A DNA stretch of 64,000 bases from Chloroflexota bacterium (GTDB lineage: Bacteria; Chloroflexota; Dehalococcoidia; GIF9; AB-539-J10): positions 4,446 through 68,445 of the forward strand of contig DAITOK010000004.1 of the NCBI GenBank assembly GCA_036834125.1. The letters are read 5' to 3'. Below, piece after piece: positions 1 to 43,757 of this stretch; the first letter of the stretch is position 1; each line of letters starts with the position of its first letter. Under the pieces are notes generated by a model. The model saw only the letters and a program-made list of their open reading frames with translations, had not been told where the DNA came from and ran no database searches. Both the position numbers and the translations under genes were made by a program.

Positions 1-73
1 AAGGCTCTTCTTGTCCTTATGAAAAGCTTGTTGACCAAGCCTAGAATGCTCAGGATGCTGATTGTGCAGGGTA

Positions 74-313
74 TCAGGTTAGCCGGGATGAGGCTAGGGC
101 TTCAGCAGGAGATTTTCCCTCGCTGGCGACGCTACCGCGGTAAAGAGTTTGATAGAAAGCTCTTCTGAAAGACCTGGCGCGAAATATTAAATGCTCAGCA
201 ATATCGCAATAGTGATGTCCAGAATCTGAAACAGTTCGTATTTTCGAATCTAGAGACTTGGGTTTGCCCGTGATTCCGGTGTTGCGATTCAGACCTTGTC
301 GGTAACTATCCAT
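74..313 (-). pseudogene. possible remnant of an AraC/XylS-family HTH regulator (C-terminal helix region only); may be a spurious ORF
   Basis: 79-aa ORF. The segment IAEHLIFRARSFRRAFYQTLYR resembles the second HTH of AraC-family C-terminal domains. No N-terminal domain is present, and the ORF overlaps the 3' end of the PPTase gene. Confidence 0.15.
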
Positions 314-903
314 TCAACCTGGTTATCATCTTTGATGACAGAAATGATATGGTTGTTGTACCGCAATTGCTCGACAACAAAAGTCTCTCCCTTGTAGTCT
401 AAGGTGATGAGGTTTTCGTCCGGGACGGAAGTTACCCGGCAGGTTCGTAGCCCACCCACAACGCCAAGACCGATAGCCTTGAGCACTGCTTCCTTGGCAG
501 TCCAGTAGCGGAAGAATGTGTCCCAGGATCTGTCTCTCAGTTTCCACTCCTCGTCACTCACCGCATAGTTGAAAAGCGATTCGGTGCGAGGCACAATCTC
601 CTCAATGTCAATGCCAATTCTAGCGGTGCTCACCACAGCCGCCACATATTTAGGCTTGTGGGAGATAGACCAGTAAATCCCGTGGACAGGAAGCGGTACC
701 CCTTTTTCGTCCTGCATCAATTTCCCCAGCTTCACTGCACTTTTTCCAGCACTTAATTTTAGTGCCTCACGGGCAGCTCGACTTAGATGGTCTACCTTTT
801 CTCGACCGCTCAGGCTTCCCCTCTTAAGATAAGAGGGATCAGGGAAGTCATGATTGCCCTTGGTTGGGAGGTGGACTGGCATCACCACCGGAAATAGAGT
901 CAT
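289..903 (-). CDS. 4'-phosphopantetheinyl transferase (Sfp/EntD-type)
   Basis: 204 aa with the [12 protein letters not shown] motif typical of the PPTase superfamily. Its start overlaps the fabI stop (ATGA), which suggests translational coupling. It is the last gene of the FAS-like operon. Confidence 0.8.
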
Positions 904-1712
904 GGGCTTATCGGACCCCTCAGCGCCTTCTTGATGATATCTTTATCGAAATAGTTGACGGACATCCCGGCATCTACGACGATGCCCTGGGCGTTAATGC
1001 CACTGGAACGCTCGCTCAGCAGAAACGCCACGGTGTTGGCTACTTCTCTTGTTGTCAAGCCTTTTTTGCGCAACGTCAACTGCTCGGCGAAGAGGTAGTA
1101 GTCCAAGTACCCAGGTATCCCTGCCGAGGCTGAAGTCTTCAAAAGTCCCGCGTTCACGGAATTAAACCGAATCTGAGAAAAAGCGCTGAAGGATTTCGCC
1201 AGAAAGCAGATAGTGGAATCCAGGGCAGCTTTTACCGGAGCCATAAAACCATAGGGTTCGGCTGCCATCTTGGTGGTTGAGATGGAGATAGTGACAACAG
1301 ATGCTTTTTCATCCAATAGGCCTTTAAACGCATTAGCAATGGCGATCAAGGAATAGCAGGAGATATCAATTGACTGCAAGAAGTCTTTCTTTCTTGTCTC
1401 GTGAAATGGCTTAAGTCCTTCTTCGTAGTTGGCAAAGGCGATAGAATGGACGATGCCATGAAGCTTGGGATACTTCTTGGCGACATCCTCCGCCAGCTTC
1501 TTTATCTCCTCCTCTCGCTCCACATCGCAAACGTAGATATCGGCAGCGGGGAGAATCTTGGCGACGCTCTCCTTCCTTGCCTCCGAGCGAACGCTGTAAA
1601 TCACATTAGCGTTAGCCTCAGTGAGAACCTCGCCCACAGTGTAAGCCACGCTCTTCTTATTCGCCACCCCGAAAACCAGAAAATTCTTGCCGGCAATATC
1701 CAGGAAGTCCAT
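900..1712 (-). CDS. fabI: enoyl-[acyl-carrier-protein] reductase (NADH), FabI family
   Basis: 270-aa SDR. The [13 protein letters not shown] region matches the FabI Tyr-x6-Lys active site, and the Gly-rich N-terminus reads [11 protein letters not shown]. Confidence 0.85.
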
Positions 1713-1738
1713 ATTTCGCTCCTTTTATCCTCGTGAAG

Positions 1739-2164
1739 TCAAGGCGCCTCTTTAGCCAGGGTGACGGTGAATTCGACGGTGACCGAGGTCTTGCCGCCAA
1801 CCGAGGCTTTGCCTTTCATGTAGTAGGCGTTGCTGATTTTTTCCACAAGCTCGGTTTCAATGTCCAAGGTATCGCCGGGCCTGACGATATTTTTGAACTT
1901 GGCGTTGTTAATTCGGGTCAGGACGGGAATGCCGCCGCTCAAGCCACCTATCATTTTGGAAAGCAAAATCGCTCCTGTTTGGAAGATGGATTCGCAGATG
2001 AGTGCTCCCGGCATGATCGGTTGCCCGGGGTAATGTCCCTGAAAAACCGGGTCATCGGGTTTTACCTCTTTGACCGTTTTGATTTTTGTTCCGCTCATCT
2101 CCACGATTCTATCCACGAATAAGAAGGGTGGGCGATGCGGTATTGCGTTGAGTATTTCCTCCAT
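1739..2164 (-). CDS. fabZ: 3-hydroxyacyl-ACP dehydratase FabZ
   Basis: Hot-dog fold motifs are PHRPPFLFVDRI and FQGHYPGQPIMPGAL. I set the start at the internal ATG (MEEILN), which sits 8 nt after a GGAGGA RBS. The longer ORF extension runs into fabG. Confidence 0.85.
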   Translation of the reverse strand: MEEILNAIPHRPPFLFVDRIVEMSGTKIKTVKEVKPDDPVFQGHYPGQPIMPGALICESIFQTGAILLSKMIGGLSGGIPVLTRINNAKFKNIVRPGDTLDIETELVEKISNAYYMKGKASVGGKTSVTVEFTVTLAKEAP

Positions 2165-2165
2165 G

Positions 2166-2906
2166 TCATAGTCCTCCCGCAACCTCAAGATCGGAGCCGG
2201 TGATATAAGATGCCTCTTTGGAAGCCAGGAAGAGGACACAGGCAGCTACCTCTTCGGGCTTGCCGAACCTCTTGATGGGAATCCTGGCAAGATAGGCTTC
2301 ACGCAGTTTATCAGGCAAGTCTCGAATAAGTTCAGTTTCGATAAAACCTGGTGAGACGCAGTTGACGGTGATGCCGCGGGTAGCGACCTCTTTGGATAGC
2401 GATTTGGTCAGGGCAAGTAAGCCAGCTTTAGCAGCAGCGTAGTTAGCCTGACCTTCAAAGGCATACCTTTCCATGACCGAGCTGATATTGATAATCCGTC
2501 CATATCGTTTGCGCATCATATTCAGGACGGCGAATTTGCACATGTAAAAGATTCCTGTAAGGTTGACATTAAGAACATCGTGCCAATCCGTTTCCTTCAT
2601 CATAGCCAGGACAGAGTCCTTTCGGATGCCGGCATTGTTGACCAGGACTTCAAAGCTCCCATATTTACTCTCTAAGTATTTAAAGAATCTCTCCACTTCC
2701 TCATACCTGGACACATCGAGCTTCTGGATATCGAGATTTTCGGCGAACGGGCTGTTATCCTCTTTGAATCTGGCGGCTGCAGCCTCATTGGTGGAATAAG
2801 TGACTATAACTCGGGCGCCAGCCTTGAGGAAAGCCTCGGCGATGGCTCTGCCTATGCCTCTGGTGCCGCCGGTGACGATGACAGTTTGTCCTTTGAAATC
2901 GTACAT
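2166..2906 (-). CDS. fabG: 3-oxoacyl-ACP reductase FabG
   Basis: 246-aa classical SDR with TGGTRGIGRAIA, NNAG and a YAAAKAG catalytic Tyr/Lys. It lies inside the fab operon. Confidence 0.85.
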   Translation of the reverse strand: MYDFKGQTVIVTGGTRGIGRAIAEAFLKAGARVIVTYSTNEAAAARFKEDNSPFAENLDIQKLDVSRYEEVERFFKYLESKYGSFEVLVNNAGIRKDSVLAMMKETDWHDVLNVNLTGIFYMCKFAVLNMMRKRYGRIINISSVMERYAFEGQANYAAAKAGLLALTKSLSKEVATRGITVNCVSPGFIETELIRDLPDKLREAYLARIPIKRFGKPEEVAACVLFLASKEASYITGSDLEVAGGL

Positions 2907-2951
2907 TTCGTAACTCCCCTAACCCCTCTTATCTTAAGGGGGAACTTTAGG
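2907..2951 (-). repeat. intercistronic hairpin element, copy A (downstream of the CrtI-like gene 1 stop; supplies the fabG RBS)
   Basis: Read on the minus strand it is cctaaagttcccccttaagataagaggggttaggggagttacg. This shares about 80% identity with copy B at 4428-4469. It contains a stem ccc..ctt/aagagggg followed by a GGGGAG motif. Confidence 0.6.
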
Positions 2952-4362
2952 CACCTCTTGAGCAGAGGAACTTATCTACATCGTTGGCGACTATTACGCC
3001 GTAATTGGCGGCGCCTAGCCAACCGGACATAATGATGCCCACTGAGCCAGTATGGAAAAGCCCGGCTATTTCTTTGGGAAGACCCATACTGGTCTTTAAC
3101 CCTTCAAATTTGGTGCCGAAAGACGCGCCGTTGAGGTGCAGCGTATACCTGTGAAATGTCTTGGGCGTAGCTGCCTCGACGTAATCCATCTTGCGTCGAA
3201 TGTCAGGTATATATTTCTCCAGAGCATTCAGCGTCCGCTGAATCAATTCTTTTTTGGAGGCCAGGTATTCTTCTTGGGACAAGTTTGCCCAATCCTCGTA
3301 GTTGGCGTTGGATGAAGCAACGATGGAGTACATGTTCGAACTGGGTCGGGTCTCTGGATAGTAGATGGAGAAAGTTCGGCTGGTGGTATTCTTGCTGCGA
3401 AGTTCTACAGGGTCAAATTTCTCGGCTTCCGAAGTGAAGAGCAAATCTCCGATATAGTCAATCTTCTCGCCTTTCTTAATGCCAATATAGACCTGACAGC
3501 TGCTGTTATTGAGACGCACCTTGCCAGCTTCCTCCAGAAAGCCAGGAGAAAAGTGCTCATCTCCCACGAGCTTATGGACGGTGGATAACAGATTGCCGTT
3601 GGAGACAACTGCTTTAGCTTTGATTGATTGCCCATTGGCGATAACGCCGGCAACCTTTTTGTCTTTAACGAGTATCTTCTCAACCAGGCACCTGGTGCAG
3701 ATATGCACACCATTTCTTGCCAGTTCTTCCTGCATCTTCCCGATAAACTGGTCTGTGCCGCCACGGACAGTGTAAACCCCTTTGCTCATAAAGTTCGAGA
3801 ATACGATGCCGTAGCTTATAGCAGGGTCTTCCAGAGTCGAACCATTGGCGTAGGTGATGGGTTCCATGAGCAAGCGATGGACGTCATCACGACCGGGGAA
3901 GAATTTTTCAAAGAATTCCCTCGTGGTCATAGTCTGGTCGTCGTAAAAATTCATCTTGCGGGCTGCATCAAAAAAGTTTTCAATGTTCTCACGCGGCACC
4001 TTGAAGTGCTCCTGCAAGATGCGAGTGAAGTCTTCGCGGTCGTAAGTGGTGGTGAGGGAGAACTGCGGATTATCGAATCTGATGCCTTTGAGCTGAACAA
4101 TCATATCGGCGATTTCCGGGCTCCAGTATTTGCGGCAGGTCTTGATCATGCCCACAGGGAATCCGTGTAGGGCGACATCGAAGATATGTTGTTTTCTTTT
4201 GAACCAGGTCGCTAACCCGCCCAGCTTGGAGTGCTGCTCCAGGAGAAGGACTGAATGTCCGCTCTTAGCCAGCATATTGGCGCAGGACAGACCGGCTAGC
4301 CCTGCTCCGATGACGATGACATCGTATTCTGGCTTGATGACCTCAGGCAAGCTGTGGCTCAT
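2947..4362 (-). CDS. FAD-dependent oxidoreductase, phytoene desaturase (CrtI)/RetSat-like family (COG1233-type)
   Basis: 471 aa. The N-terminus [16 protein letters not shown]...[11 protein letters not shown] is a Rossmann FAD motif. The C-terminal [17 protein letters not shown] is typical of the CrtI family. It is embedded in a fab operon. Confidence 0.75.
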
Positions 4363-4427
4363 ACATCTTCCTTCACAGTTAGATTTTGTGCCCTAAATTC
4401 CCTTCTCGTTGCAACCTCTCTTCCGTG

Positions 4428-4469
4428 ATTCCCCTCACCCCCTCTTATGCCAAGAGAGGGACTTTTAGG
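4428..4469 (-). repeat. intercistronic hairpin element, copy B (between the two CrtI-like genes)
   Basis: Read on the minus strand it is cctaaaagtccctctcttggcataagagggggtgaggggaatcacg. It is a paralogous copy of element A. Confidence 0.6.
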
Positions 4470-4509
4470 AAAATCTTCTGACTACTGGATTTTAGCATTT
4501 AGTTTTGAT

Positions 4510-5895
4510 TCAAGTCTTCTGGAGAATGTGGAGGTTAGCCATGGAGATGCCGCTGAGCATAGCTCCCACAATTCCCAGGAAGCCCTGGTCAGTGCCGCAG
4601 ATGAACAGATTCTCGAGATGAGTCTTGCCTGTTTTGACCTTGTGCGGCGTTCCGTAGACTGCGCCATTGATATGACCGGTGAACCGGTAGATCGTTCTGG
4701 GAGTAAAGATGTCAGTAAAAACGATGTGCTTGCGGAAATCAGGGATAAACTTCATCACTTCTTCAAGCGTGGCTTCCAGACAGGCCCCTTTCTGGGCTTT
4801 GTAAGCCTGTTCATCTAATTGGTTCCAGAGTTCGTAATTTGCCAGGTTCGTTATCCTGATTATACCTTCGGGAAGGGGCTCATCAAATTGAAAGTTATTG
4901 GGGCAGCATACCACGCCACTGGAAACATCCACCAGCTGTTCTGGCTTGCGGTACCTAAATTTGTCCGAGTTATTGTAAAAGGTAATGGTTGCAGTGTAGC
5001 CGAGTTCAGCGGGCTCTCTGTTCAAGACCAGAATAAATTCCACGAAGGAAAGTTGGCCAGCATAGTGCTCGAAATGTGCGGGCTCGTGGTTAGCCAACAG
5101 ATTCATTGTTTCCACGTAGCCGGCAGAGGACAGTATTCTATCTGCAGTCAAGATTTCCCCGTTTTCGAGCACAATTGATTCAACTCTCCCGTGGGCACAT
5201 TTGAGGCTTCTTACGGCGCAGCGCATCCTTAGTTCACCGCCGCAGTCTTTGTATTTTCTGACCAGAACATCCAGAATCTGCCGCACGCCGGCTCGGGGAC
5301 GGGCGAAGCCTTCACAGAAAATGCTCTTGAACATGATAACGAACTGTCCGAACTCCATATCGTTCTCTTGGGCATTTCCGTAGAACATGAGCGGACAAAA
5401 GAGCATGTCAATAAGGAGCGGGTCGCCAAAGATAGAACTCAGGATTTCACGAGCTGATCTGGGCTTGGCGTAGAGATTGAGTTCGTCGTAATCAAAGATA
5501 GTTTTGAGCAGCTTCTGAAAGTTGTCAGCTTCTCTCGGGAAATTGTCTGTCACCTCTCGGACAAAGAAACTGAAATCGTTGTTGAATCTCAGAATCTTGT
5601 TGGGAAATCTGATTACGGACATGCGTTGTGGACAGAGGGCAAAATCCTCAGGCTTCAACTTGAGCTGTCGGAGTAGCTTGGGCAAAGGTGCTAGCCTCAT
5701 ATTTTTAGAAACGTAATTGGTTACAGCATGGAGTCCGACGTCGAATTTGCGTCCACTGCGGTTATAGAAGGAGTTAAGTCCTCCCACGCGATAATGCTTT
5801 TCCACGATACAGACCCTTTTACCGTAGTAAGCGAGTCTGATGCCGGCGGCAAGGCCAGACATTCCGGCTCCAATGATCACGACGTCGTAATGCAT
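4510..5895 (-). CDS. FAD-dependent oxidoreductase, phytoene desaturase (CrtI)/RetSat-like family, paralog 2
   Basis: 461 aa with N-terminal YDVVIIGAGMSGLAAG...IVEKHYRVGG. It is homologous to but diverged from the adjacent paralog, and ends in a C-terminal GFLGIVGAMLSG motif. Confidence 0.75.
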   Translation of the reverse strand: MHYDVVIIGAGMSGLAAGIRLAYYGKRVCIVEKHYRVGGLNSFYNRSGRKFDVGLHAVTNYVSKNMRLAPLPKLLRQLKLKPEDFALCPQRMSVIRFPNKILRFNNDFSFFVREVTDNFPREADNFQKLLKTIFDYDELNLYAKPRSAREILSSIFGDPLLIDMLFCPLMFYGNAQENDMEFGQFVIMFKSIFCEGFARPRAGVRQILDVLVRKYKDCGGELRMRCAVRSLKCAHGRVESIVLENGEILTADRILSSAGYVETMNLLANHEPAHFEHYAGQLSFVEFILVLNREPAELGYTATITFYNNSDKFRYRKPEQLVDVSSGVVCCPNNFQFDEPLPEGIIRITNLANYELWNQLDEQAYKAQKGACLEATLEEVMKFIPDFRKHIVFTDIFTPRTIYRFTGHINGAVYGTPHKVKTGKTHLENLFICGTDQGFLGIVGAMLSGISMANLHILQKT

Positions 5896-5987
5896 GGCTG
5901 GCTCTGTGACAAAACGAAAGCTAACTCAGGTTCCCATATCTCTGGGAAAGCAAAGCGAATACTTAACCTCCTCCGCCAGCGCTACCG

Positions 5988-6239
5988 TTAAAGGTTTTTC
6001 ATGCGCGGTTCCAGATAAGCCACGGAACTGTCCAGAGTAGCTAGTTGTACGTAGTCGTCTTCGGGGACCTCGATGCCGTAGCGTTTTCGTAGTTCCATAA
6101 TGATGTCAAGAAAATCCATGGAGTCCAATTCTATCTGTTCTCGTATCGGGATATTTCCCTTGAGGTTGCTAAGGTCTTCATCCGGTACGATCTGAGCTAT
6201 GATTTCGAGGATGGTGGCTCGGATTTGCTCTTTAGTCAT
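5988..6239 (-). CDS. acpP: acyl carrier protein
   Basis: 83 aa with the LDSMDFLDIIMEL phosphopantetheine-attachment motif (DSM in place of DSL). It sits between the KAS gene and the CrtI-like genes. Confidence 0.85.
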   Translation of the reverse strand: MTKEQIRATILEIIAQIVPDEDLSNLKGNIPIREQIELDSMDFLDIIMELRKRYGIEVPEDDYVQLATLDSSVAYLEPRMKNL

Positions 6240-6269
6240 GTCGCCTCCGTTTATTGAATACTTACTGCT

Positions 6270-7520
6270 TTACCTCTCAAATCTTTTTACGATAACAACT
6301 GAGTTGATGCCCAGCATGCCGAAGGAATTATTCAATATGTAGTCTACCTTGTCAACCTCTTTGGGCTCATTGATTACGAAGGTACCGAGATGACACTGTG
6401 GGTCGAGGTTATCCAGGTTGATTGTGGGATGGATTAGGTGGTCTTCAAAGGAAGGTAGATTGCCAGCTAATTCCAAAGCGCCGGCAGCACCCATGGCGTG
6501 ACCAATGAAACTCTTGGTGTTGTTTATAGAGGCATGGGGATATTCGCCAAACACTTCTCTGATTGCTTGGCACTCCACGGGATCTCCTTCAATGGTGCCT
6601 GTGCCGTGAGTGTTGATAATATCAATATCATCAGGCGAGATACCAGCTTTCCTCAGAGCAAGTCTCATGCACTCCACCTGTCTATCCTTGTTGGGAAAAA
6701 TAAAGTCAGAGGCGTCTGAATTTATGCCATAGCCCACGATCTCGCCGTAAATCTTGGCTTGTCTCTTAAGGGCATCGCTCAATCTTTCTAGGACGAAAAT
6801 GCATCCGCCCTCGGAAACCACCACACCGTTTCTATCCTTATCGAAGGGACGGCAGGCTTTTGTCGGGTCGGGATGAGAAGCTAAAGCACCTTCGCTTCGG
6901 AAGCCGGCAAAGATACCAAAAGAGCCTGTGCACTCCGAGACGCCGCCAGCCAGGGCTAAATCTACCTCGTTCAACAAGAGCATCTGTAAACCTTGAATAA
7001 TTCCGATATTGCCACCAGCGCAGGCAGCTCCCAGAGTGTAGTGTGGTCCAGTGATTCCCAGATTCAGAGTAACTTCGCCCGCTGGGTTGTTAGCCACAAC
7101 TCTGGGATTATGGTGGTGCGACCAGAATTTTACGTCGTAGTTGTACTGCTTGATTTCATATATTTCGTTTTCTGTTTCCACAGTACCGTGCTCGGTGATG
7201 CCGAGGTAAACACCAATTCGTGACCTGTCGAGGCTGGCAAGCTGCAAGCCGGCATCGTTGATTGCCTCCTGGGCACAGTAGATAGCTATGGAGCCGGCTC
7301 GTGTGCCACGGCGCAGATCCTTCTTTTTCTGGTATTTGAGGGGGTCAAACTGACATATGCCAGCTAATACTTCGCCCATATAGCGGACAGTAATTTTTTG
7401 TATTCCAGACTTGCCAGTAAGTAAACTCTTTCGGAATTCCGCCAAGTTATTCCCGTTGGGCGCAGTCAGTCCCACGCCGGTTATTACAATCCGTGTTTCG
7501 TTAAGTTTGCTTGTTATCAT
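6270..7520 (-). CDS. fabF: beta-ketoacyl-ACP synthase I/II (FabF/FabB-type KAS)
   Basis: 416 aa with the active-site Cys in GAACAGG, the HGTGT motif and the FIGHAMGAAG His motif. Confidence 0.9.
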   Translation of the reverse strand: MITSKLNETRIVITGVGLTAPNGNNLAEFRKSLLTGKSGIQKITVRYMGEVLAGICQFDPLKYQKKKDLRRGTRAGSIAIYCAQEAINDAGLQLASLDRSRIGVYLGITEHGTVETENEIYEIKQYNYDVKFWSHHHNPRVVANNPAGEVTLNLGITGPHYTLGAACAGGNIGIIQGLQMLLLNEVDLALAGGVSECTGSFGIFAGFRSEGALASHPDPTKACRPFDKDRNGVVVSEGGCIFVLERLSDALKRQAKIYGEIVGYGINSDASDFIFPNKDRQVECMRLALRKAGISPDDIDIINTHGTGTIEGDPVECQAIREVFGEYPHASINNTKSFIGHAMGAAGALELAGNLPSFEDHLIHPTINLDNLDPQCHLGTFVINEPKEVDKVDYILNNSFGMLGINSVVIVKRFER

Positions 7521-7635
7521 ATGGTAGGACTTCCCCTATGCGTGTAGACCTTGAAGTGGCTTGAAGAAATCTAATTACATCACTATCTGCAGATATGCTT
7601 TTCTGGATTCACTTCGCTCTGGGTCGCTCCAAATT

Positions 7636-8685
7636 CTACCATTCCAGACCCAGCATAAGGCAAACTAATCCGCTGCCAATCCCCAGCATGGCAACCTTAT
7701 CACCATGCTTGAGGCAACCTTGGTCAATTGCAATAGCCGTAGTAATGGGGAGGGAAACGGAGCCAATGTTTCCCAGATATTCTACAGTGGAGAAGTTCTT
7801 GGATTCATCAAGTCCGAGGGCTTTGAACAACAGTTTATTATGCACGGAGCTAACTTGGTGAGTGAAAACCTTATCTACATCGGAGTTACTCCACCCGAGC
7901 TCTTGTTTTGTAGCTTCCCAGGTGATAGGCGCCAAACTCAGCCCGTTCTTCAGGAGATCTCCGTAGTCTGTGCGCATATCAGGTATTTCCTCTAAATCGA
8001 AGAAGGAAACATCGGTTTCTATGCGGCAAAGGTTATTATGCCGCGAGGCAGTGCGTGTTACTCCGCCGAGAATTCTGTGACCGTTTTGTGATAGATGGGC
8101 ATGAGTCAGTACTGCAGCCACTGCTCCTGATCCTAAAGTTAGGGTGGCAAAGGCGAGTTTGAGCTTGTCTCTTGTGAGGTTTGGGTCCTTCAAAAGTTTA
8201 TCTATTGTTGCCTCAACAATAGGTTTACTACTCTCACAACCAACTACAATCCCAGCTTTGACCTGTCCCAATTCAATCATATTCGCCAGAGTCACCATGC
8301 CGTTAATAAATCCCAAACAAGCATTAGAGATGTCGAAGATAGTAGCTGTGGAGGGAAGTCCCAAGGAATCGTGAACTACAGTGGCTGTCGCTGGCTCAAG
8401 GAAATCGCGAGATACCGAAGTGTGCAGGAGGCATCCGATATCCTCTTTCTTGACACCAGATTTACTAATGGCTTTTTCTGCAGCTTTCATACCTGCTTGG
8501 CTCGGGGTTACTCCGTCGTCCCAAAACCGCCGTTCGCGAATGCCGGTCATCATTTCCAACCGGCCGAAAGACAGGTTGAGTTTCTCATATACCGGAGCCA
8601 GCCTTTGTTCCAGGCTCAAAGAGGTTACAGCATTTTGAGGGAGTTCGTAACCGAACGACTCAACGCAGACTTTCTCGTACCGCAT
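7636..8685 (-). CDS. 3-oxoacyl-ACP synthase III family protein (FabH-like)
   Basis: 349 aa with TGIRERRF and the active-site Cys in DISNACLGF. It is the first gene of the fab-like operon. Confidence 0.8.
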   Translation of the reverse strand: MRYEKVCVESFGYELPQNAVTSLSLEQRLAPVYEKLNLSFGRLEMMTGIRERRFWDDGVTPSQAGMKAAEKAISKSGVKKEDIGCLLHTSVSRDFLEPATATVVHDSLGLPSTATIFDISNACLGFINGMVTLANMIELGQVKAGIVVGCESSKPIVEATIDKLLKDPNLTRDKLKLAFATLTLGSGAVAAVLTHAHLSQNGHRILGGVTRTASRHNNLCRIETDVSFFDLEEIPDMRTDYGDLLKNGLSLAPITWEATKQELGWSNSDVDKVFTHQVSSVHNKLLFKALGLDESKNFSTVEYLGNIGSVSLPITTAIAIDQGCLKHGDKVAMLGIGSGLVCLMLGLEW

Positions 8686-9389: not shown

Positions 9390-10061
9390 GTGGAGTGGAT
9401 GGTGTTCTACTATACCGCAGGAAAAGAGAATGCCACTCTCACTGCCCAGCACTTCGGTATCTCAAGAAAAACATTTTACAAGTGGTTAGGACGCTTCCAG
9501 GACTCTAAATACAATGTCCGTAGCCTTCATGACCAGCCTAAAACTCCTCACCATAAGAGAAAGTGGGAAGTTACTCTTATCCAGGAAGATAGGATAAGAA
9601 AGTTAAGAACAAAACATCCTTACTACGGGAAAAGGAAGCTAAAAGTCCTTTATGAACAAGAATATGGCGAGGAGATATCTACCTGAAAAATCGAGAGGGT
9701 AATTCGCAAGCATAAGCTCTATCCTGACCAGAGGAAGGCAGAGAAAACCAGTAGAAAGAGAGCCAGAGCTCTAAAGAAGCCCAAGAAAAGAGTCACCAGC
9801 CTTGGTTATTAAAAGGGAAGCTTGTTTTTTCAGCTCGATACCATCGTTATCTACTGGAAGAACGTCCAAAGATACATTCTGACCGCTGTAGACCATGCTA
9901 GCAAACTAGCTTATGCCCGGATGTATAGGAACAAAAGCTCAAGGGCGGCAGCAGACTTCTTATACAGGCTACGCTACGTGGTAAACCAGCCTATTGAAAA
10001 TCTTCTGACAGATAATGGGAGTGAATTTGCCTGGGGTTTGAGAGAGCTGCTATCGGATTAG
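9390..10061 (+). mobile_element. IS481-family transposase remnant (frameshifted and C-terminally truncated pseudogene)
   Basis: ORF 9390-9686 carries an N-terminal HTH (FGISRKTFYKWLGRF). ORF 9822-10061 carries part of a DDE integrase core (TAVDHASKLAYARMY...LTDNGSEF). The two ORFs are in different frames, and the catalytic domain stops early. Confidence 0.6.
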
Positions 10062-10196: not shown

Positions 10197-11231
10197 ATGC
10201 CAAAAAAGATAAAAGCGGGCATAATAAATGTCACCGGCTACATTGGTGTCGAGCTGACTCGCCTGCTTTGTCAGCACCCCCAAGTAAAGCTCGCGGTCGT
10301 TACCGGAAGGAGTGCAGCAGGACAAAAATTGGATGACGTGTTCCCGAACTTTGCAGGCACCAACTACACCGTAAAAGCTGAACTGGATAGCGAGGTAGAC
10401 ATCGCTTTCTCAGCTATGCCTCATAAAAGCAGTATAGACATAGTGCCTGCCTTGTTAAAACAGGGCATCAGGGTTGTTGATGCCAGTGCTGATTTCAGGC
10501 TGAAGAATGCTGACGAATATCCGAAATGGTATGGGTTTACGCATCCATCGCCCAACCTGTTGAAAGAAGCGGTTTTTGGCTTACCCGAACTGCATCGTGA
10601 GCAAATCGCCTCAGCCTCGCTAGTGGCAAACCCCGGCTGCTACAGCACCGGTGCCATCTTAGCCTTAGCACCACTGGTCAAAGAAAGGCTTATCCAACCC
10701 GAGATAGTGATAGATAGCAAATCTGGCGTCTCGGGCGCTGGACGAACCCTAAGCTTAACCACCCACTATTCTGAGGTCAACGAGGACGTTTGTGCCTATT
10801 CGCTAGAAGGACATCGACATTTGCCTGAAATAGAACAAGAATTAAGAGCACTTAGCTGTTCGTTTTTCCCTTCCATAACCTTCGTACCACATCTAATTCC
10901 CATGACTAGAGGCATATTGAGCACCTGTTATGCCAAACTAGCTGGTAGCCGTCGCCTGACAGCCGACAGTCTGAAGCAGTTGTACCGTGAGTTTTACAAA
11001 CATGCACCTTTCGTCCGGATAACGAGCCAACCTCCGCACACCAAACATACCTGGGGGACCAATTTGTGCCTTATCTACCCCACAATTGATTCTAGAACAG
11101 GTAAGATTATAGTGATTAGCTGTCTCGACAACCTCGTCAAAGGAGGTGCTGGGCAAGCGGTGCAAAATATGAATCTTATGTTTGACCTGCCTGAGACCAA
11201 GGGATTAGCATCCTTAGCCGTTTACCCGTGA
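10197..11231 (+). CDS. argC: N-acetyl-gamma-glutamyl-phosphate reductase
   Basis: 344 aa with the NPGCYSTG active-site Cys motif and an N-terminal Rossmann motif GYIGVEL. Confidence 0.9.
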   Translation: MPKKIKAGIINVTGYIGVELTRLLCQHPQVKLAVVTGRSAAGQKLDDVFPNFAGTNYTVKAELDSEVDIAFSAMPHKSSIDIVPALLKQGIRVVDASADFRLKNADEYPKWYGFTHPSPNLLKEAVFGLPELHREQIASASLVANPGCYSTGAILALAPLVKERLIQPEIVIDSKSGVSGAGRTLSLTTHYSEVNEDVCAYSLEGHRHLPEIEQELRALSCSFFPSITFVPHLIPMTRGILSTCYAKLAGSRRLTADSLKQLYREFYKHAPFVRITSQPPHTKHTWGTNLCLIYPTIDSRTGKIIVISCLDNLVKGGAGQAVQNMNLMFDLPETKGLASLAVYP

Positions 11232-11376
11232 AATGTACCCGCAGTTTTAGTACCTTCTGCCTATCAGCAGTAAGTACCATAGTGCTATTTACAATAGCTA
11301 GGAGGAATGATATAGTGAAAATACTTAAGCTTTAATTAAATATGGTTAAATAGTTCCACGCGGGTCTACGTGAGCT

Positions 11377-13707
11377 ATGGGAACTAAGTTAACATCAACG
11401 GTAGGCGAGGATAAGAAGAGCCTAACAATGCCCAAGGGCTGGGACGAGGTAGCGCATGCCCTGCTCCACAGCATTGGACTGGGAATATATGTCGTTCAAG
11501 AAGGAAAATTCGTGTATGTTAATCCGGCATTTCAAAAACTAACAGGCTACGCCGAAAACGAGCTATTAGACAAATACTCCCTTGACCTTGTTCATTCAGA
11601 AGATAGGGAGATGGTGAGGCGAAGAGCCATAGAAAACTTGAAGAGCCAGAAGAGCCGTGTTCCTTACGAATACAGACTTGTGAAAAAGAATGGCGAGGCA
11701 ATGTGGGTTTTGGAAGAAGTTACGTCAATACATTATGCCGGCAAGCGTGCCACAGCAGGATTTCTTATGGATATTACTGCTCGCAAGCAATTAGAGGAGA
11801 CTATCAAGGATTCAGAGGAAAGATACCGAACCATACTGAACGAGATGCAAGATGGCTATTTCGAGGTTGACCTCGGTGGACATGTCACGTTTGCTAACAA
11901 TGCGGTATGCCAGGATCTGGGATACTCAGCAGAAGAGCTGATTGGGATGAGCTACAAGAAGTTTACGTTTGAGGAGGATATAGAACCTGTATTTCGAGCT
12001 TTTAATGAGGTGTACCGAACCGGTGTGCCCAGCAAGGGCATCTATTCGAGGAGCCACCGCAAAGACGGAAGCCAGGGGTTTTATGAGACATCAGTTGCTC
12101 TGTTGAGAAATAACAAGGGCGAACCTATTGGGTTCCGTTGCGTTGGGCGTGACATCACCAAGCGTAAAGAAGGGGAAGAGAAACTACGCCAAAGTAGGGA
12201 AAGGTATAAAGCTCTGTTCGATAGCTCGGTCACAGGTACGGTTGTTGTGGACGCTGAAACCATGAATATAATGGTAGCTAATCAAGCCGCTCTGAAGATG
12301 TTCGGATTCAGCTCCGCAGAGGAAGGTATAGGAGCAAACCTTCTGGACTTTGTTCCCTCAGATGAAAGGGAAAGGGTTTTGCAGCTCATTAAGGAGGAAC
12401 TCTTCGAGAAAGACTCCCGGCAAGCCGTGGATCTCCCGGCGATGACCAAAGATGGTCGGAGAATATGGATAAATGTTACCGGTGCCAGAATCGCTCATGA
12501 AGGTAAATTGGCAGCCTTGATTTCTTTCACAGACATCACCGAGCGCAGGAGAGCAGAAGAGGCGCTGAAAGAGTCGGAGGAAAAATACCGAAGCATATTA
12601 GACGAAATAGGAGACGCCTATTTTGAAGTGGACCTGAAAGGCAATTTCACCTTCGTCAATGACCAGATGAGCCAACACTTACAGTACTCCAAAGAAGAGC
12701 TCCTGGGAATGAATTACAGAACCTTCACTGCCCCGGAAGAAATCCAAGAGATATATAAAGCCTACAATGAAGTATACCGTACAGGTCAGCCCAAAGCGAA
12801 TATTGGACATAAAATCATTCGAAAAGATGGCTCTAAGGGGTTCAGCGTCGTATCAATCTCTCCGGTGAGGAATGAGAAAGGCGAGGTCGTCAGATTTCGG
12901 GGTATCTCTCGTGATATCACTGAGCGCAAACGCTTGGAGGAAGAGCGAGAGGCTTTGCTGCAAAATATAAAGAACATCAACCAAAAGCTGGAAGAAGCCA
13001 ATAAAGAACTCCAAGATTTTGTCTACATTGCCTCGCATGATCTCCGGGAGCCGCTGCGGAAGATTTCCTCATTTGGCACGTTGCTTGAAGAGTCACTGAG
13101 AGGAAAACTGGATGAAGACCAGCGAGAAAACCTGGAGTTCATGATAGACGGCGCTCGCCGTATGCAGAATATGATAGACGCATTGCTTACCTATTCTCGG
13201 CTCACTACCAAAGCCAAGCCTTTTGAATGGGTAAATCTGAACGAGGTAGTCGAAGATGTAAAGAAGTTCGAATTGGCAGCTTTACTGGAAGAAACACAAG
13301 GTGCCATCCACATTCCCAAGCCACTGCCTTCAGTTCAAGCTGACCCAATTCAGATGCACCAACTTTTCCAGAACTTGATTGGCAATGGGCTAAAGTTCCA
13401 TAAAGAAGGTGTACTACCCGAGGTGACCATTCGCGCCTATGACCTCGGAAACCATATGATTCGAATAGAAGTGGAAGACAATGGAATAGGAATTGATGAA
13501 AAATACCATAGTCAATTGTTTACTATGTTTAGACGACTTCATACGAGAGAGCAGTATGAAGGGACAGGGATTGGTCTAGCTGTCTGTAAGAAAATCGTTG
13601 AGCGGCACGGAGGCAGCATCGGAGTAAGATCAAAGCCTGGCGAAGGGTCAACATTCTGGTTTACACTGCCCAAAGAAAGCCGCGTTAAGGAAGGATTAGG
13701 AAAATGA
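11377..13707 (+). CDS. cytoplasmic sensor histidine kinase with about four PAS domains
   Basis: 776 aa with no TM segments and repeated PAS-like blocks. The HisKA H-box is ASHDLREPLRKI. The HATPase_c G-boxes are GTGIGLAVCKKIVERHGGSI and GEGSTFWFTLP. Confidence 0.85.
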   Translation: MGTKLTSTVGEDKKSLTMPKGWDEVAHALLHSIGLGIYVVQEGKFVYVNPAFQKLTGYAENELLDKYSLDLVHSEDREMVRRRAIENLKSQKSRVPYEYRLVKKNGEAMWVLEEVTSIHYAGKRATAGFLMDITARKQLEETIKDSEERYRTILNEMQDGYFEVDLGGHVTFANNAVCQDLGYSAEELIGMSYKKFTFEEDIEPVFRAFNEVYRTGVPSKGIYSRSHRKDGSQGFYETSVALLRNNKGEPIGFRCVGRDITKRKEGEEKLRQSRERYKALFDSSVTGTVVVDAETMNIMVANQAALKMFGFSSAEEGIGANLLDFVPSDERERVLQLIKEELFEKDSRQAVDLPAMTKDGRRIWINVTGARIAHEGKLAALISFTDITERRRAEEALKESEEKYRSILDEIGDAYFEVDLKGNFTFVNDQMSQHLQYSKEELLGMNYRTFTAPEEIQEIYKAYNEVYRTGQPKANIGHKIIRKDGSKGFSVVSISPVRNEKGEVVRFRGISRDITERKRLEEEREALLQNIKNINQKLEEANKELQDFVYIASHDLREPLRKISSFGTLLEESLRGKLDEDQRENLEFMIDGARRMQNMIDALLTYSRLTTKAKPFEWVNLNEVVEDVKKFELAALLEETQGAIHIPKPLPSVQADPIQMHQLFQNLIGNGLKFHKEGVLPEVTIRAYDLGNHMIRIEVEDNGIGIDEKYHSQLFTMFRRLHTREQYEGTGIGLAVCKKIVERHGGSIGVRSKPGEGSTFWFTLPKESRVKEGLGK

Positions 13708-14156
13708 TCAAGGAATTGTCACCGCTGGTCATATTGCTGGTGGAGGACGACCCAGCAGACCAAAAGTTGATCAAGATCTCCCTTAGAGAACAAAAGCTCG
13801 CCAATGATATTTACACTGTACGGAGCGGCGAGGAAGGGTTGGACTTCTTGTACCACCGTGGACGTTACAGCGATGGAACTCCGCGACCCGATCTGATTCT
13901 GCTGGATTTAAACATGCCTGGAATAGGAGGAAAGGAATTCCTGAGGCAGCTCAAAAAAGATGAAAACCTGAAACAGATTCCCGTTGTTATCGTAACAACT
14001 TCGGAAGCCGAGAAGGATATAATAGATAGCTACAAGCTGCAAGCCAGTGGATATGTGCACAAGCCTGTGACGCTGGAGGGATTTAAGGAAGCCATGAAAA
14101 AACTCGAAGAATACTGGTTCGTATTGTGCAAACGAATACCTAAGGAACAACCATGA
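13704..14156 (+). CDS. single-domain response regulator (CheY-like receiver)
   Basis: 150 aa with VILLVEDDPADQ and DLILLDLNMPG (phospho-acceptor Asp). Its start overlaps the HK stop by ATGA. Confidence 0.85.
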   Translation: MIKELSPLVILLVEDDPADQKLIKISLREQKLANDIYTVRSGEEGLDFLYHRGRYSDGTPRPDLILLDLNMPGIGGKEFLRQLKKDENLKQIPVVIVTTSEAEKDIIDSYKLQASGYVHKPVTLEGFKEAMKKLEEYWFVLCKRIPKEQP

Positions 14157-15109
14157 CACAAGAAGTTCAAAAACCACTACTGAAAATGCTCATCTGCGAT
14201 GATGACCCTGGAGATCGCAAATTAGTCCGGACTTATCTACAGCGGATGACCGACAGGGAAATTGTGTTGCTAGAAGCTGGGCATACAGAGGAAATTCAGA
14301 ACGCTTTGGACAAAGGTAGAATTGACCTCGTCTTGATGGATAATCAAATGCCAGGCAAATCCGGTATGGAATGGCTTAGCGAAATTACAAAACGACAACT
14401 TGCTCCCGTGATTATGTTGACGGGGTCGGGAACCGAAGAGATTGCAGTACAAGCCTTTCAAGAGGGAGCAGTCGGTTATCTGTCAAAGAATAACCTATCC
14501 AAAGAAAAACTTAAGAATGCTATTGATGCTGCCTTGGATAAATGGGCACGGCTACAACAAGCCATGGCTGACAAAGAGAGGTTGGAAAGACTGGCAAACT
14601 TCGATTCCTTGACCGGGTTGTATAACCGCCGAGCGATTTTCAGCAAGTTGTATGAGTTGATCAATCTCGCCAATCGCTATAAAGAAGACTTTAGTCTGAT
14701 CATGCTGGACATTGACCATTTTAAGAAGGTCAACGATACCTATGGACATCTCACTGGAGATGAGGTCTTGGAGAAACTTGCTACCTTAATCTGTCGGAAC
14801 ATCCGCGAGACGGATATAGTGGGACGCTATGGAGGAGAGGAGTTTATCATTATTTTGCCCAAGACAAACCTGTCCTCGGCTTGGATTGTAGCTGAGCGAA
14901 TCCGAAGTATAATCGAGAAGGCAGAGATGAGAGACGCCGCGGACAATATATTCTCCATAACCGTGAGTCAAGGACTAGCTGGATGGGAGAGGGGCGAAGA
15001 TGCTATGTCTCTTATCGCTCGCGCTGACGAAGCTCTGTACAAGGCTAAGCAGAAAGGACGGAACCGGGTACAAATTCTGCTCGGTCCCAGCCTGAGAGAC
15101 AAAGTCTAG
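14153..15109 (+). CDS. response regulator with GGDEF (diguanylate cyclase) output domain
   Basis: 318 aa with an N-terminal REC domain (LICDDDPGD, DLVLMDNQMPG) and a C-terminal GGDEF domain (RYGGEEFIIILP). Its start overlaps the previous stop. Confidence 0.85.
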   Translation: MTQEVQKPLLKMLICDDDPGDRKLVRTYLQRMTDREIVLLEAGHTEEIQNALDKGRIDLVLMDNQMPGKSGMEWLSEITKRQLAPVIMLTGSGTEEIAVQAFQEGAVGYLSKNNLSKEKLKNAIDAALDKWARLQQAMADKERLERLANFDSLTGLYNRRAIFSKLYELINLANRYKEDFSLIMLDIDHFKKVNDTYGHLTGDEVLEKLATLICRNIRETDIVGRYGGEEFIIILPKTNLSSAWIVAERIRSIIEKAEMRDAADNIFSITVSQGLAGWERGEDAMSLIARADEALYKAKQKGRNRVQILLGPSLRDKV

Positions 15110-15138: not shown

Positions 15139-16632
15139 TTATTTTTCTTGTTCGATTCCTTCTGGAGTCACTCCCAGTCTGTCGAAGGCATACTTGCCTT
15201 CAACGGGGATGCCCGCCAGGCGTTTTGCGATATTCTTAGTTTTTTCCACGTCGTAGCTACCCATAATAGCAATTTGCTCCATTCGAGGAGAGCCGCCACC
15301 GTGGACACCAGCATATTGCATCACGCCTGCTATCTCGGAACAAGACAAAGCCTGCACAAAGCGGAAAGCGCGATGTATGTCGTCTATTGATACCTTGGGG
15401 TTACGCATCATGTACTTCTTGATAAAGGGACCTATCTCTGGATTTAGCCAGTCTCCCTCACGGGGCAGCGTCGCCGGCATCCCGCCCGCTATATCCGCCA
15501 GAATATCATACTCATGATAGATATTTACACCGGCATGCCTTCGGCTCACGTTGCAGTAGAGCACATCCGGAACATATGTCCCAGAAGCTGCCTTCCGAGC
15601 ATTGACAGCAGCAGCGATGCCTGTCCCATAACATAGCTCTGAAGTGCAAATCAACTCAGCCAGCTTCTCCCTCACATGTGGCTCATTTTCAATTCCGTTG
15701 CATTCAGCCATCAAGGCGGTAGCGCCCGCGATCACATCTGTCATCGCCGGTTTGCAACCGGTATAGCTATGGCGATGATACAGGGCAAACATGAGCGCTA
15801 ACTGCCCTCCGTATTCGTATTCCCCATTCAAGAATACTCTTTCCCAAGGGACAAACACATTGTCAAAAATCACCATAGCATCGGCAGAGCCAAACGGACC
15901 GGGTGCGCCCATGCTAGTCGGCGTTTCGTAAAGAGCAGCACTTACAATCAGCTTCACACCTTCTTCATCAGCAGGTATAGCACAGGAAACTGCCCAAGGA
16001 CCTTCTTCCTTAGTCAGACGCCTTGTAGGCACGACCAATATCCACTCCTCAACGGGTGAGTAAGAGATGTGCACTTTGGCACCCCTGATCACGATACCAT
16101 CGCTCTTTGTTTCCACAACCCGAACATAAAGGTCAGGATCTAGCTGCTCGTGTGGCCTCCACGGGCGGTTCCCTTTGACATCCGTCTGAGCACAGGCTGC
16201 GGTACAATCTTTCTCCTGAAATTCTCTTAACCAGTTCTCAAATCTTTTGTGGTATTCAGTCCCGTAAGCCTTATCAACTTCATAAGTAACAACCGAATTG
16301 GCATTTATAGCATCAATGCCCATACAGCGAGCAATGCATCCTCCAACTTGGTGACAGGTTAGCCTGGTCATACGCTGTTTGGCTAGGAGATCGGCAATGC
16401 TGCGGTGGACATGACAGAACCGGTTTATCGTCTTGCCGGTCAGATGAGACTTGGCTGTCAATATATCTCTATACTCTTTGAACTCCGGGTCTCTTATGAT
16501 GTCATAGGTCTTCGCCAGAACGTTCACAGCCCCCTCTAAGCGCGGGTGGTCACGGTCTATTAGCTGCCCATTCATATAGACGTTCCGCTTCATCTTGCTC
16601 AATCTCTTTCGATACTCACTCGATGTAATCAC
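15139..16632 (-). CDS. abfD: 4-hydroxybutyryl-CoA dehydratase / vinylacetyl-CoA delta-isomerase (AbfD family)
   Basis: 497 aa with strong collinear similarity to AbfD from recall: GKTINRF, DGIVIRGAK, VIFDNVFVP and HGGGSP. Confidence 0.85.
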   Translation of the reverse strand: MITSSEYRKRLSKMKRNVYMNGQLIDRDHPRLEGAVNVLAKTYDIIRDPEFKEYRDILTAKSHLTGKTINRFCHVHRSIADLLAKQRMTRLTCHQVGGCIARCMGIDAINANSVVTYEVDKAYGTEYHKRFENWLREFQEKDCTAACAQTDVKGNRPWRPHEQLDPDLYVRVVETKSDGIVIRGAKVHISYSPVEEWILVVPTRRLTKEEGPWAVSCAIPADEEGVKLIVSAALYETPTSMGAPGPFGSADAMVIFDNVFVPWERVFLNGEYEYGGQLALMFALYHRHSYTGCKPAMTDVIAGATALMAECNGIENEPHVREKLAELICTSELCYGTGIAAAVNARKAASGTYVPDVLYCNVSRRHAGVNIYHEYDILADIAGGMPATLPREGDWLNPEIGPFIKKYMMRNPKVSIDDIHRAFRFVQALSCSEIAGVMQYAGVHGGGSPRMEQIAIMGSYDVEKTKNIAKRLAGIPVEGKYAFDRLGVTPEGIEQEK

Positions 16633-16665
16633 TGTAACCCCCTTTAGCTGATTTCATTTACCTTG

Positions 16666-17433: not shown

Positions 17434-17617
17434 TACATACCTCCTGAACACGATTTATCGGTCGAAGTTGCTGAGACCGACACCAGAGTATATATCAAGA
17501 TAGTGTCATAGGCAACTTGAGCAGCAAGGTTTATCAGTCGTTTTAAGCCCTCGCCCGGCTATGATATAGGAAGGCACACGAATTAGGCAAAAAGCTATGT
17601 GATGCAGCTTGTAAGCA

Positions 17618-18631: not shown

Positions 18632-18635
18632 GGAA

Positions 18636-19931: not shown

Positions 19932-20023
19932 GATTTAATCTCCTTCCTGTTGAAACTTCTTTTCGGTAAGGTGCCTAATACCCTTAGCTAAGCAAAACCG
20001 CAGTCTAGCGCTTAAACGTCAGA

Positions 20024-21711: not shown

Positions 21712-21740
21712 ATTACCTCCTAAATAGAAATCCTGGTCGC

Positions 21741-35172: not shown

Positions 35173-35186
35173 AGACCTTACGCTTT

Positions 35187-40201: not shown

Positions 40202-40325
40202 AACAAGTTCTAGTTTTGCCTACTATTTCACAAAGATACACTAATGTATCCGTACTTGGATGGCTTCAAGTATGGGACTTTTATAATAAAGACTTTATGT
40301 GAATCCCCCAGGAGGTGAATTAGTT

Positions 40326-41669: not shown

Positions 41670-41716
41670 TACACTTGGGTTTCAACTGACATTTCAACCG
41701 ACAAGGAGGCGCACAG

Positions 41717-42883: not shown

Positions 42884-42906
42884 CAGTAGTCCGCGAGGAG
42901 GCTTAC

Positions 42907-43749: not shown

Positions 43750-43757
43750 GAGCAACC

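Follow-up and report, generated by a model that had tools for sequence, protein, structure and literature searches.

We analysed a 64,000-nt stretch of DNA (the window) from a Dehalococcoidia bacterium (Chloroflexota; contig DAITOK010000004.1, assembly GCA_036834125.1). The subject of this study is an operon in which genes resembling those of a fatty acid synthase (FAS) of type II enclose two flavoenzyme genes. Families were assigned to the window proteins with Pfam and NCBIfam profiles and their curated cut-offs. An original prediction had placed nine co-directional genes at 289-8685, and all nine were found there on the minus strand (Table 1). They are tightly packed: the FabI and 4'-phosphopantetheinyl transferase (PPTase) genes overlap by 4 nt, and the FabG stop codon (2168-2166) lies one base ahead of the likely FabZ ATG (2164-2162). 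FabZ is thus 141 aa long, in agreement with the gene-caller annotation of contigs identical to this one. Upstream of the nine lies the gene for a 133-aa protein that matched no Pfam or NCBIfam family. Since it is kept in the same position, at 68-78% identity, in related genomes (our loci L004, L005, L007, L008 and L009; locus numbers are used below only to tell loci apart), it is the tenth gene of the operon, and it can no longer be taken, as the 'repeat protein' of the original prediction was, for a sign of accessory status. Rfam and tRNA scans of the window found nothing.

Table 1. Genes of the operon and its convergent neighbour, with the basis of each predicted assignment (ACP, acyl carrier protein; KS, ketosynthase)
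Feature	Position	Strand	Basis or remark
Small protein, 133 aa	8758..9159	-	K-Y/H-x-P-D/N-R/E motif repeats; operon gene 1 in Dehalococcoidia
OleA-type thiolase (predicted head-to-head Claisen condensing), 349 aa	7636..8685	-	NF006720, solved-structure search, catalytic residues
FabF-like KS, predicted dedicated and elongating	6270..7520	-	PF00109 and PF02801; Cys-His-His present
ACP, predicted dedicated	5988..6239	-	PF00550; DSMD serine motif
CrtI-superfamily flavoprotein B (CrtI-B), 461 aa	4510..5895	-	Amino_oxidase and NAD_binding_8
CrtI-superfamily flavoprotein A (CrtI-A), 471 aa	2947..4362	-	amine-oxidase/CrtI superfamily
FabG-type 3-oxoacyl-ACP reductase	2166..2906	-	TIGR01830; Tyr-x3-Lys motif
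FabZ-type 3-hydroxyacyl-ACP dehydratase, 141 aa	1739..2164 (ORF to 2239)	-	PF07977; NF000582
FabI-type enoyl-ACP reductase	900..1712	-	adh_short_C2, 187 bits; Tyr-x6-Lys by eye
Sfp-type PPTase	289..903	-	PF01648, 52 bits; AusB/EntD/HetI-like matches
DUF362 protein, C-terminus, 55 codons	1..168	+	convergent to operon; full protein 434 aa

The operon had been credited with every elongation activity, including a FabH-like ketoacyl-ACP synthase III (KAS III). KS, ACP, FabG, FabZ and FabI are indeed present, but the KAS III is not. The thiolase in question scored 454 bits against NF006720 (cut-off 285) and 113 bits against the FabH model TIGR00747 (cut-off 292). Among solved structures it is closest to the 3ROW/3S20/4KTI/5VXD/6B2R series and to 3FK5, which we take to be Xanthomonas OleA; they align over the full length with 39% identity (234 bits, E 3e-68), whereas true FabH structures reach at most 83 bits. 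Residues Glu97, Cys123, His276 and Asn306 of the thiolase align with catalytic residues, the counterpart of Glu97 presumably being the catalytic base specific to OleA. In addition, homologues from Nitrospirales (L029, 54% identity) and Smithella (L090, 45%) are directly followed by genes of the OleB, OleC and OleD types, a context that supports the OleA identity independently of how those structures are labelled. Judged by its sequence, the supposed KAS III is an OleA-type thiolase, predicted to be of the head-to-head condensing kind, and its most likely place is the final stage of the pathway rather than initiation. A KAS III primed by acyl-CoA, of the PA3286 type, was dropped as a candidate when the solved-structure search and the ole gene context pointed to OleA.

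To follow the operon in other genomes, we scanned one genome per species with a degenerate pattern for CrtI-A. At least 600 stretches matched, and 598 of the 600 listed encode a CrtI-A relative. The best 80 of at least 598 CrtI-A loci were kept for neighbourhood counts, with the loci assessable for each gene as denominators, and the core was mapped by tblastn with the window proteins. FabZ lay downstream of CrtI-A in 52 of 77 loci and CrtI-B upstream in 40 of 77; FabI (40/71), ACP (31/70) and KS (26/59) were found near it. A core of the form KS-ACP-CrtIB-CrtIA-(FabG)-FabZ-FabI is present in Dehalococcoidia, Nitrospinota, Nitrospirota, Phycisphaerae, Pirellulales and Planctomycetaceae, with identities across phyla of 52-73% (CrtI-A 64-68%; KS 66-72%, in Nitrospinota and Planctomycetota loci; FabI 61-73%; CrtI-B 52-62%). 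Further searches added Bdellovibrionota (Halobacteriovorax, and Bacteriovorax sp. BSW11_IV with a shorter form, CrtIA-FabG-FabZ-FabI), Smithella and Rubinisphaera. The original prediction had staked itself on conserved co-occurrence of these genes, and the core does recur in several phyla. Where genes are inserted between CrtI-B and CrtI-A, as in L029 and L088, they are unrelated or of no known family. Solitary CrtI-A genes, 64-66% identical, occur in L033, L039, L051, L055 and other Planctomycetaceae, several of them beside DUF1800/DUF1501 genes and others with FabZ only; Planctomicrobium sp. SH661 and SH527, whose genomes are complete, are among the hosts of such loci.

Linkage of the core to ole genes is found in several lineages. 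In Smithella (L090) a single strand reads KS-ACP-CrtIB-OleA-OleB-OleC-OleD-CrtIA-FabG-FabZ-FabI, and in Nitrospirales (L029) the order is oleABCD-KS-ACP-CrtIB-CrtIA-FabG-FabZ-FabI. Among Planctomycetota, OleC and/or OleD lie upstream of KS in seven loci, and OleA lies downstream on the opposite strand in four. The divergent loci L086 and L088 also have ole genes beside the core. The OleB-type gene of L029 and L090 encodes an alpha/beta-hydrolase like haloalkane dehalogenases; the OleC gene encodes an AMP ligase, with 'olefin beta-lactone synthetase' as its best specific match, and the OleD gene a reductase that matches '2-alkyl-3-oxoalkanoate reductase' best. The last two, as neighbours with AMP-binding and 3-beta-hydroxysteroid dehydrogenase-like domains, had been considered as a fatty-acyl-AMP loader and a thioester reductase until NCBIfam matches, along with the order of the genes, identified them instead as OleC and OleD; ideas of an ether lipid, a sphingolipid or an alcohol as product fell with that re-identification. 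In L086, a 2.48-Mb contig (ERZ25039505), the CrtI-A relative is a deep-branching one (P0132, 39-41% identity) without an adjacent CrtI-B; FabG-FabZ-FabI follow downstream of it, and oleD, oleC, oleB and oleA lie about 6 kb away on the other strand.

Such broad conservation would also be expected if the operon were a branch, independent of O2, that makes ordinary unsaturated fatty acids (UFAs) for the membrane, like FabA/FabB, FabM, FabX or FabN-FabO-FabI, with its tie to OleA secondary. The branch point would then be run by the dedicated KS and FabI, with the flavoenzymes as isomerases that convert trans-2- to cis-3-enoyl-ACP. The core is strongly conserved in loci without ole genes too (Nitrospinota, by cdsA-dxr-ispF, and Bdellovibrionota), the Dehalococcoidia operon is set among housekeeping genes, and Kuenenia is without FabA; a set of KS, dehydratase and FabI serving UFA synthesis in E. 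faecalis offers a precedent (PMC9671860). However, a private ACP and PPTase would sever the branch from PlsX/PlsY, which draw on the housekeeping pool of acyl-ACP, OleA lies within the operon, oleABCD is interleaved with the module in L090, and a single isomerisation does not need two different flavoenzymes. We consider a membrane-lipid role unlikely. In the Nitrospinota loci L020, L023, L026 and L030, the module comes immediately downstream of three phospholipid and methylerythritol phosphate (MEP)-pathway genes, cdsA, dxr and ispF.

The two flavoenzymes are paralogues, with 25% identity over their full length (E 2e-36), and both have an FAD-binding Rossmann fold with a CrtI-type substrate domain. 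Against the phytoene desaturase family model TIGR02734 they score 85.9 (CrtI-A) and 73.2 bits (CrtI-B), far from the cut-off of 238. Their description as members of the 'CrtI/RetSat family' is therefore right as to the fold but not as to family membership (86 and 73 bits in round figures). The best equivalog scores are 114.7 bits for CrtI-A and 96.5 bits for CrtI-B, versus cut-offs of about 550-587; for CrtI-B the best NCBIfam match is the carotenoid isomerase model TIGR02730 (cut-off 587). Identity to solved CrtI-type structures is 18-20%, and no curated NCBIfam model or solved structure covers either protein. No crtB, crtE or cyclase gene occurs in the window cluster or the related loci, where acyl-ACP and ole genes are the neighbours. 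The orthogroup stays compact when clustered at 50% identity. In two lineages CrtI-A is fused to FabZ, as P0122 (625 aa) and P0395 (644 aa, on three contigs); because these two share just 45% identity, a single assembly error cannot account for the fusion. Adjacency and fusions together suggest that CrtI-A works with FabZ. Comparison of the related loci revealed no electron-transfer or quinone-linked partner conserved in the cluster. Our literature searches found no characterised function for these flavoenzymes, and papers of 2016, 2023 (PMC10139942) and 2026 still treat their role in type II FAS clusters as unknown.

The CrtI fold is also what one would expect if the flavoenzymes were RetSat-like saturases, or dehydrogenases that convert 2-enoyl to 2,4-dienoyl chains, so that the product would be conjugated or otherwise modified and not methylene-interrupted. 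FabZ has an 'ApeI-like' (aryl-polyene dehydratase) Pfam match in precomputed annotations, and the CrtI-like UfaD makes a conjugated diene from an allylic substrate, but its product appears in vivo in aerobically grown cells only and O2 has been proposed as the acceptor (PMC7380195). Many hosts of the module, by contrast, are strict anaerobes, and the cluster is without a conserved partner for electron transfer or a link to quinones. Moreover, the ole-linked hydrocarbon of planctomycetes and Desulfotalea, C31:9, is a skipped polyene, a structure supported by the title of a reference in PMC6463001. A conjugated chain is in our view distinctly unlikely.

Most enzymes of the operon depart from their housekeeping counterparts. 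KS reaches 328.6 bits against TIGR03150 (cut-off 493.75) and is not a canonical FabF; the ACP falls under every AcpP cut-off (for TIGR00517, 31 bits vs 70.45), and the best FabI model gives the FabI-type protein 181 bits vs a cut-off of 362. FabG is borderline (TIGR01830, 297.0 bits vs 297.75), and FabZ is the only one of these FAS-type enzymes to pass (NF000582, 129.7 bits vs 113). As originally predicted, there is no FabD: its motif is found in no frame of the 64-kb window. A second KS is likewise found nowhere in the window, and neither FabD nor plsX/acc genes, the marks of a housekeeping locus, occur among the neighbours in L001-L009. It could still be argued that the cluster, with KS, ACP, ketoreductase (KR), dehydratase (DH) and enoyl reductase (ER) complete and no other fab cluster seen in the window, is the only, bulk type II FAS of the organism, and that the CrtI-like genes are unrelated passengers. 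This is very improbable, given that the CrtI pair and the FAS genes are kept together across phyla, that CrtI-A is fused to FabZ, that KS, ACP and FabI are below cut-off with FabD not found and the 'FabH' of OleA type, and that the window has, at other places, a FabK-like gene and plsY, hints of a separate housekeeping lipid machinery. The recurrence of the CrtI pair with KS, ACP, FabZ and FabI across phyla, together with the sub-cut-off scores, instead bears out the view of the locus as a specialised acyl-chain module.

The FabK-like gene (53463-54467, +) encodes an NMO-family protein with 312 bits against TIGR03151 (cut-off 453) and adjoins an enoyl-CoA hydratase gene (52467-53264); it could be a housekeeping enoyl-ACP reductase, a FabX-like enzyme, or unrelated. 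The plsY gene belongs to a der (EngA)-plsY-gpsA cluster (34198-37173, -). PlsY scores above its equivalog cut-off, which indicates that the organism makes glycerophospholipids through acyl-phosphate.

Contigs with an identical cluster show that the locus extends to the left of window position 1. The translation of window positions 1-168 is the end of a DUF362 gene found at 9287-10591 of L001, and beyond it lie genes for a condensation/WS-DGAT-like acyltransferase, an SRPBCC protein and a small radical S-adenosylmethionine (SAM) protein. The DUF362, condensation-type and SRPBCC genes are common to L001-L007, where they converge on the operon. In L013 (6026-9100) the SRPBCC, condensation-type and DUF362 genes follow FabI directly and in the same direction, an arrangement that supports a functional tie to the module. 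The condensation-type acyltransferase has an intact HHSAADG motif and, among solved structures, matches non-ribosomal peptide synthetase C-domains, all of them weakly; a sequence search of solved structures with the DUF362 protein gave no match. The radical SAM gene, about 3.5 kb from the operon in relatives, bears on whether the locus could make a ladderane-type or otherwise cyclised lipid, as proposed for clusters of anammox bacteria. The flavoenzyme superfamily and the type II FAS context are those of the anammox candidate clusters, but the family is widespread outside anammox bacteria, the radical SAM protein is small (310 aa) with weak, partial family matches that are all below cut-off, and a second, non-canonical KS is missing. 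We regard a cyclised product as extremely improbable. Routes to biotin (pimelate), lipoate, mid-chain methyl-branched and furan fatty acids were also rejected; their partner genes (a methyltransferase, bio/lip genes, UfaM/UfaO) occur in no locus.

We favour a reading in which the operon is an O2-independent type II module of discrete enzymes that makes unsaturated acyl chains for OleA; on the sequence evidence we would give this an even chance. It would be the type II counterpart of the Pfa synthase combined with OleABCD. The Shewanella 31:9 hydrocarbon requires Pfa and OleABCD (PMC6463001). Desulfotalea psychrophila, which has type II FAS clusters with phytoene-desaturase-like genes and no Pfa, makes C31:8 and C31:9, and these hydrocarbons are also reported from planctomycetes (PMC2649909), among which only Gemmata and P. 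limnophilus are listed with pfa-like clusters (PMC3098273).

The pathway that we infer, with its substrates, its isomerase or desaturase chemistry, its order of steps and its end product, would run as follows. Chains would be elongated on a private ACP by KS, FabG, FabZ and FabI, with the operon's own Sfp-type PPTase predicted to serve that ACP and malonyl transfer supplied from outside the operon. CrtI-A and CrtI-B, together with FabZ, would act on ACP-bound enoyl intermediates so that double bonds are kept, shifted or added without O2. The most likely chemistry is a redox-neutral isomerisation of the FabZ product from trans-2 to cis-3 or cis-2, comparable to that of the carotenoid isomerase CRTISO or the Propionibacterium acnes fatty-acid isomerase. 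Redox-neutral isomerisation appears likelier because many hosts are strict anaerobes, because an electron-transfer partner is not conserved in the cluster, and because CrtI-style extension of conjugation cannot yield a skipped polyene. The OleA-type thiolase would then couple two unsaturated chains head to head. In the other phyla, the product of this coupling, a 2-alkyl-3-oxo acid, would be converted by OleB, OleC and OleD to a long C31:8/C31:9-type polyolefin. In Dehalococcoidia, the convergent trio of condensation-type acyltransferase, DUF362 and SRPBCC proteins would probably process or transfer the product. Since OleBCD were not found within reach there, a ketone is one possible end product, and a derivative of a 2-alkyl-3-oxo or 2-alkyl-3-hydroxy acid, handled by the condensation-type acyltransferase, is another; this is the weakest part of the account.

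A more far-reaching version, which we offer tentatively, combines three proposals: that CrtI-A and CrtI-B are a new class of ACP-dependent, O2-independent enzymes for installing or isomerising double bonds, that the module is a 'type II polyunsaturated fatty acid (PUFA) synthase' feeding OleA, and that Dehalococcoidia make a new mycolate-like or ketone-derived lipid. It would cover the source of C31:8/C31:9 in Pfa-less planctomycetes, Desulfotalea, Smithella and Nitrospirales, and would have the OleA product of Dehalococcoidia caught by the condensation-type acyltransferase/DUF362/SRPBCC set.

Several observations weigh against a polyunsaturated product destined for OleA. A full FabI in the operon argues for chains that are at least partly saturated, and an unactivated methylene is, to our knowledge, beyond desaturation by a flavin. 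OleB, OleC and OleD were not found in the window or within about 10 kb in 11 OleA-bearing Dehalococcoidia loci, and the cores of Nitrospinota (within 10 kb) and Bdellovibrionota have no ole genes nearby. Where OleC and OleD do occur at these loci, their matches fall under the equivalog cut-offs. The database title of the 3ROW series is '3-oxoacyl-ACP synthase III', the label OleA being ours. Many Planctomycetaceae carry CrtI-A alone, and the taxon labels of metagenome-assembled genomes (MAGs) may be in error. In work of 2016, anammox homologues did not complement crtI, and anammox clusters expressed in E. coli gave no polyunsaturated fatty acids (PMC10139942).

The genomic setting of the operon does not mark it as an accessory island. 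CrtI-A homologues of more than 80% identity number in the hundreds, and those that carry a name belong to MAGs of Dehalococcoidia or Chloroflexota. These relatives have operon genes with about 80-90% identity to those of the window, placed among rpsU, yqeY, serA, serC and a tRNA synthetase gene. The original prediction had argued for accessory status from an IS481 remnant upstream. A transposase remnant is there (an HTH_28/HTH_32 match spans 9390-9686, and part of an rve domain 9822-10061), but it could not be tied to IS481 in particular. Because the fragments (9390-10061) are peculiar to this genome and coincide with a rearrangement, while the operon is conserved in relatives, they are no evidence for an accessory island. 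The transposase fragments part the operon from asd and the genes for a PAS histidine kinase and two response regulators, one of them with GGDEF (10197-15109). The asd-histidine kinase-GGDEF genes lie upstream of the operon here and past the far end of the locus in L005, which suggests that the whole block was inverted in this genome in association with an insertion sequence. A contig of the European Nucleotide Archive (ENA) that carries the identical operon breaks off upstream of operon gene 1, at a distance of a few hundred bases. Some Dehalococcoidia have a second, tandem OleA-like/KS/ACP set directly upstream (L010 1-2200, L014 1-2300, L011 at about 3658). Elsewhere in the window, an HpaB-family flavoprotein, a short-chain dehydrogenase/reductase, an unassigned 369-aa open reading frame (ORF) and two thiolases lie together at 15139-21774 (-), in what looks like an acyl-CoA cluster (beta-oxidation or 4-hydroxybutyryl-CoA-type). 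At 40299-44561 (+), two HGD-D subunits (2-hydroxyacyl-CoA dehydratase/benzoyl-CoA reductase-like) precede two BcrAD/BadFG ATPases; this could be an ATP-dependent system for dehydration or reduction.

Uncultured Dehalococcoidia are plentiful in subsurface sediments, and the gene set described here bears on the lipids that they make. C31:8 and C31:9 hydrocarbons are widespread in sediments and planctomycetes, and a set of about ten genes would make testable the origin of PUFAs and of these hydrocarbons in strict anaerobes and other bacteria with neither Pfa nor O2-dependent desaturases. The same set bears on the 'phytoene-dehydrogenase-like' enzymes of type II FAS clusters, including those of anammox bacteria, in the ladderane debate that has run since 2009. 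If the proposal is true, an O2-free flavin enzyme that sets cis bonds on ACP-bound chains would be new enzymology and would be useful in the engineering of olefin and PUFA production. This kind of cluster was noted in a 2009 paper, which proposed a novel anaerobic route to PUFAs and polyunsaturated hydrocarbons (PMC2649909). A limited literature search did not find the oleABCD interleaving, the FabZ fusions, the wide distribution or the Dehalococcoidia variant.

Several known systems invite comparison. FabX of H. pylori and FabN/FabO/FabI of E. faecalis resemble the module in reaching a cis bond during elongation by a flavin enzyme or by a dedicated KS, DH and ER (PMC8626469 and PMC9671860). 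However, FabX belongs to the NMO family, as an FMN/[4Fe-4S] enzyme, and is not CrtI-like, and both systems use the housekeeping ACP, yield membrane lipids and have no known link to OleA. The polyunsaturated fatty acid isomerase of P. acnes (2B9W) differs in acting on free linoleic acid, in its identity of 13%, and in having no ACP/FAS context. UfaD of the Rhodobacter furan fatty acid pathway is, like CrtI-A and CrtI-B, a phytoene-dehydrogenase/desaturase-like flavoenzyme, and it acts on a fatty acyl chain next to a double bond (PMC7380195). In a comparison made by description, UfaD differs in using phospholipid-bound chains and in having UfaM and UfaO as partners in place of KS, ACP and FabZ. 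From CrtI, CrtD and CRTISO the flavoenzymes are set apart by 18-20% identity, by scores of about one third of the family cut-off at best, by the lack of carotenoid genes nearby, by the acyl-ACP enzyme context and by the occasional fusion of CrtI-A to FabZ.

The parallel drawn earlier with the anammox clusters is apt, and it extends to the Desulfotalea clusters, which also combine type II FAS genes with phytoene-desaturase-like genes. The clusters described by Rattray et al. in 2009 from Kuenenia stuttgartiensis, Desulfotalea psychrophila, Geobacter and Pelobacter share with the module FAS genes and amine-oxidase/CrtI-like flavoenzymes, and D. psychrophila has an adjacent CrtI-like pair, DP2405/DP2406 (PMC2649909). 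The comparison of kuste3336, kuste3607 and DP2405/6 with CrtI-A and CrtI-B is one of descriptions only. Those clusters differ in holding radical SAM, SAM-methylase, several non-canonical FabF, glycosyltransferase and phenylacetyl-CoA ligase genes, and FabI is placed elsewhere in those genomes; the ole genes were not considered in that paper (PMC2649909). The anammox candidate cluster, amxACP-amxFabZ-FabF-FabF2-PDH-B12 radical SAM (PMC10139942), contrasts with a module that has one KS with an intact Cys-His-His, a small radical SAM protein and hosts in many phyla other than those of anammox bacteria.

The closest comparison is with the Pfa synthase and OleABCD of Shewanella and other marine gammaproteobacteria. 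The differences are clear. Discrete single-domain proteins stand here in place of the multidomain PfaA/B/C/D (TIGR02813, 88 bits vs 1010), the operon has no acyltransferase or chain-length-factor domain, its ER is of the FabI rather than the PfaD type, two CrtI-like flavoproteins take the place of the FabA-like DH/isomerase domains of Pfa, and OleBCD are not adjacent in this genome. The two systems are nevertheless alike in being synthases with a dedicated ACP, an Sfp-type PPTase of their own (the PfaE analogue) and KS, KR, DH and ER activities. In the Pfa system the unsaturated product goes to OleA for head-to-head condensation into a polyolefin (PMC6463001), and the linkage to ole genes leads us to propose that the chains made by the present module would likewise be passed to OleA.

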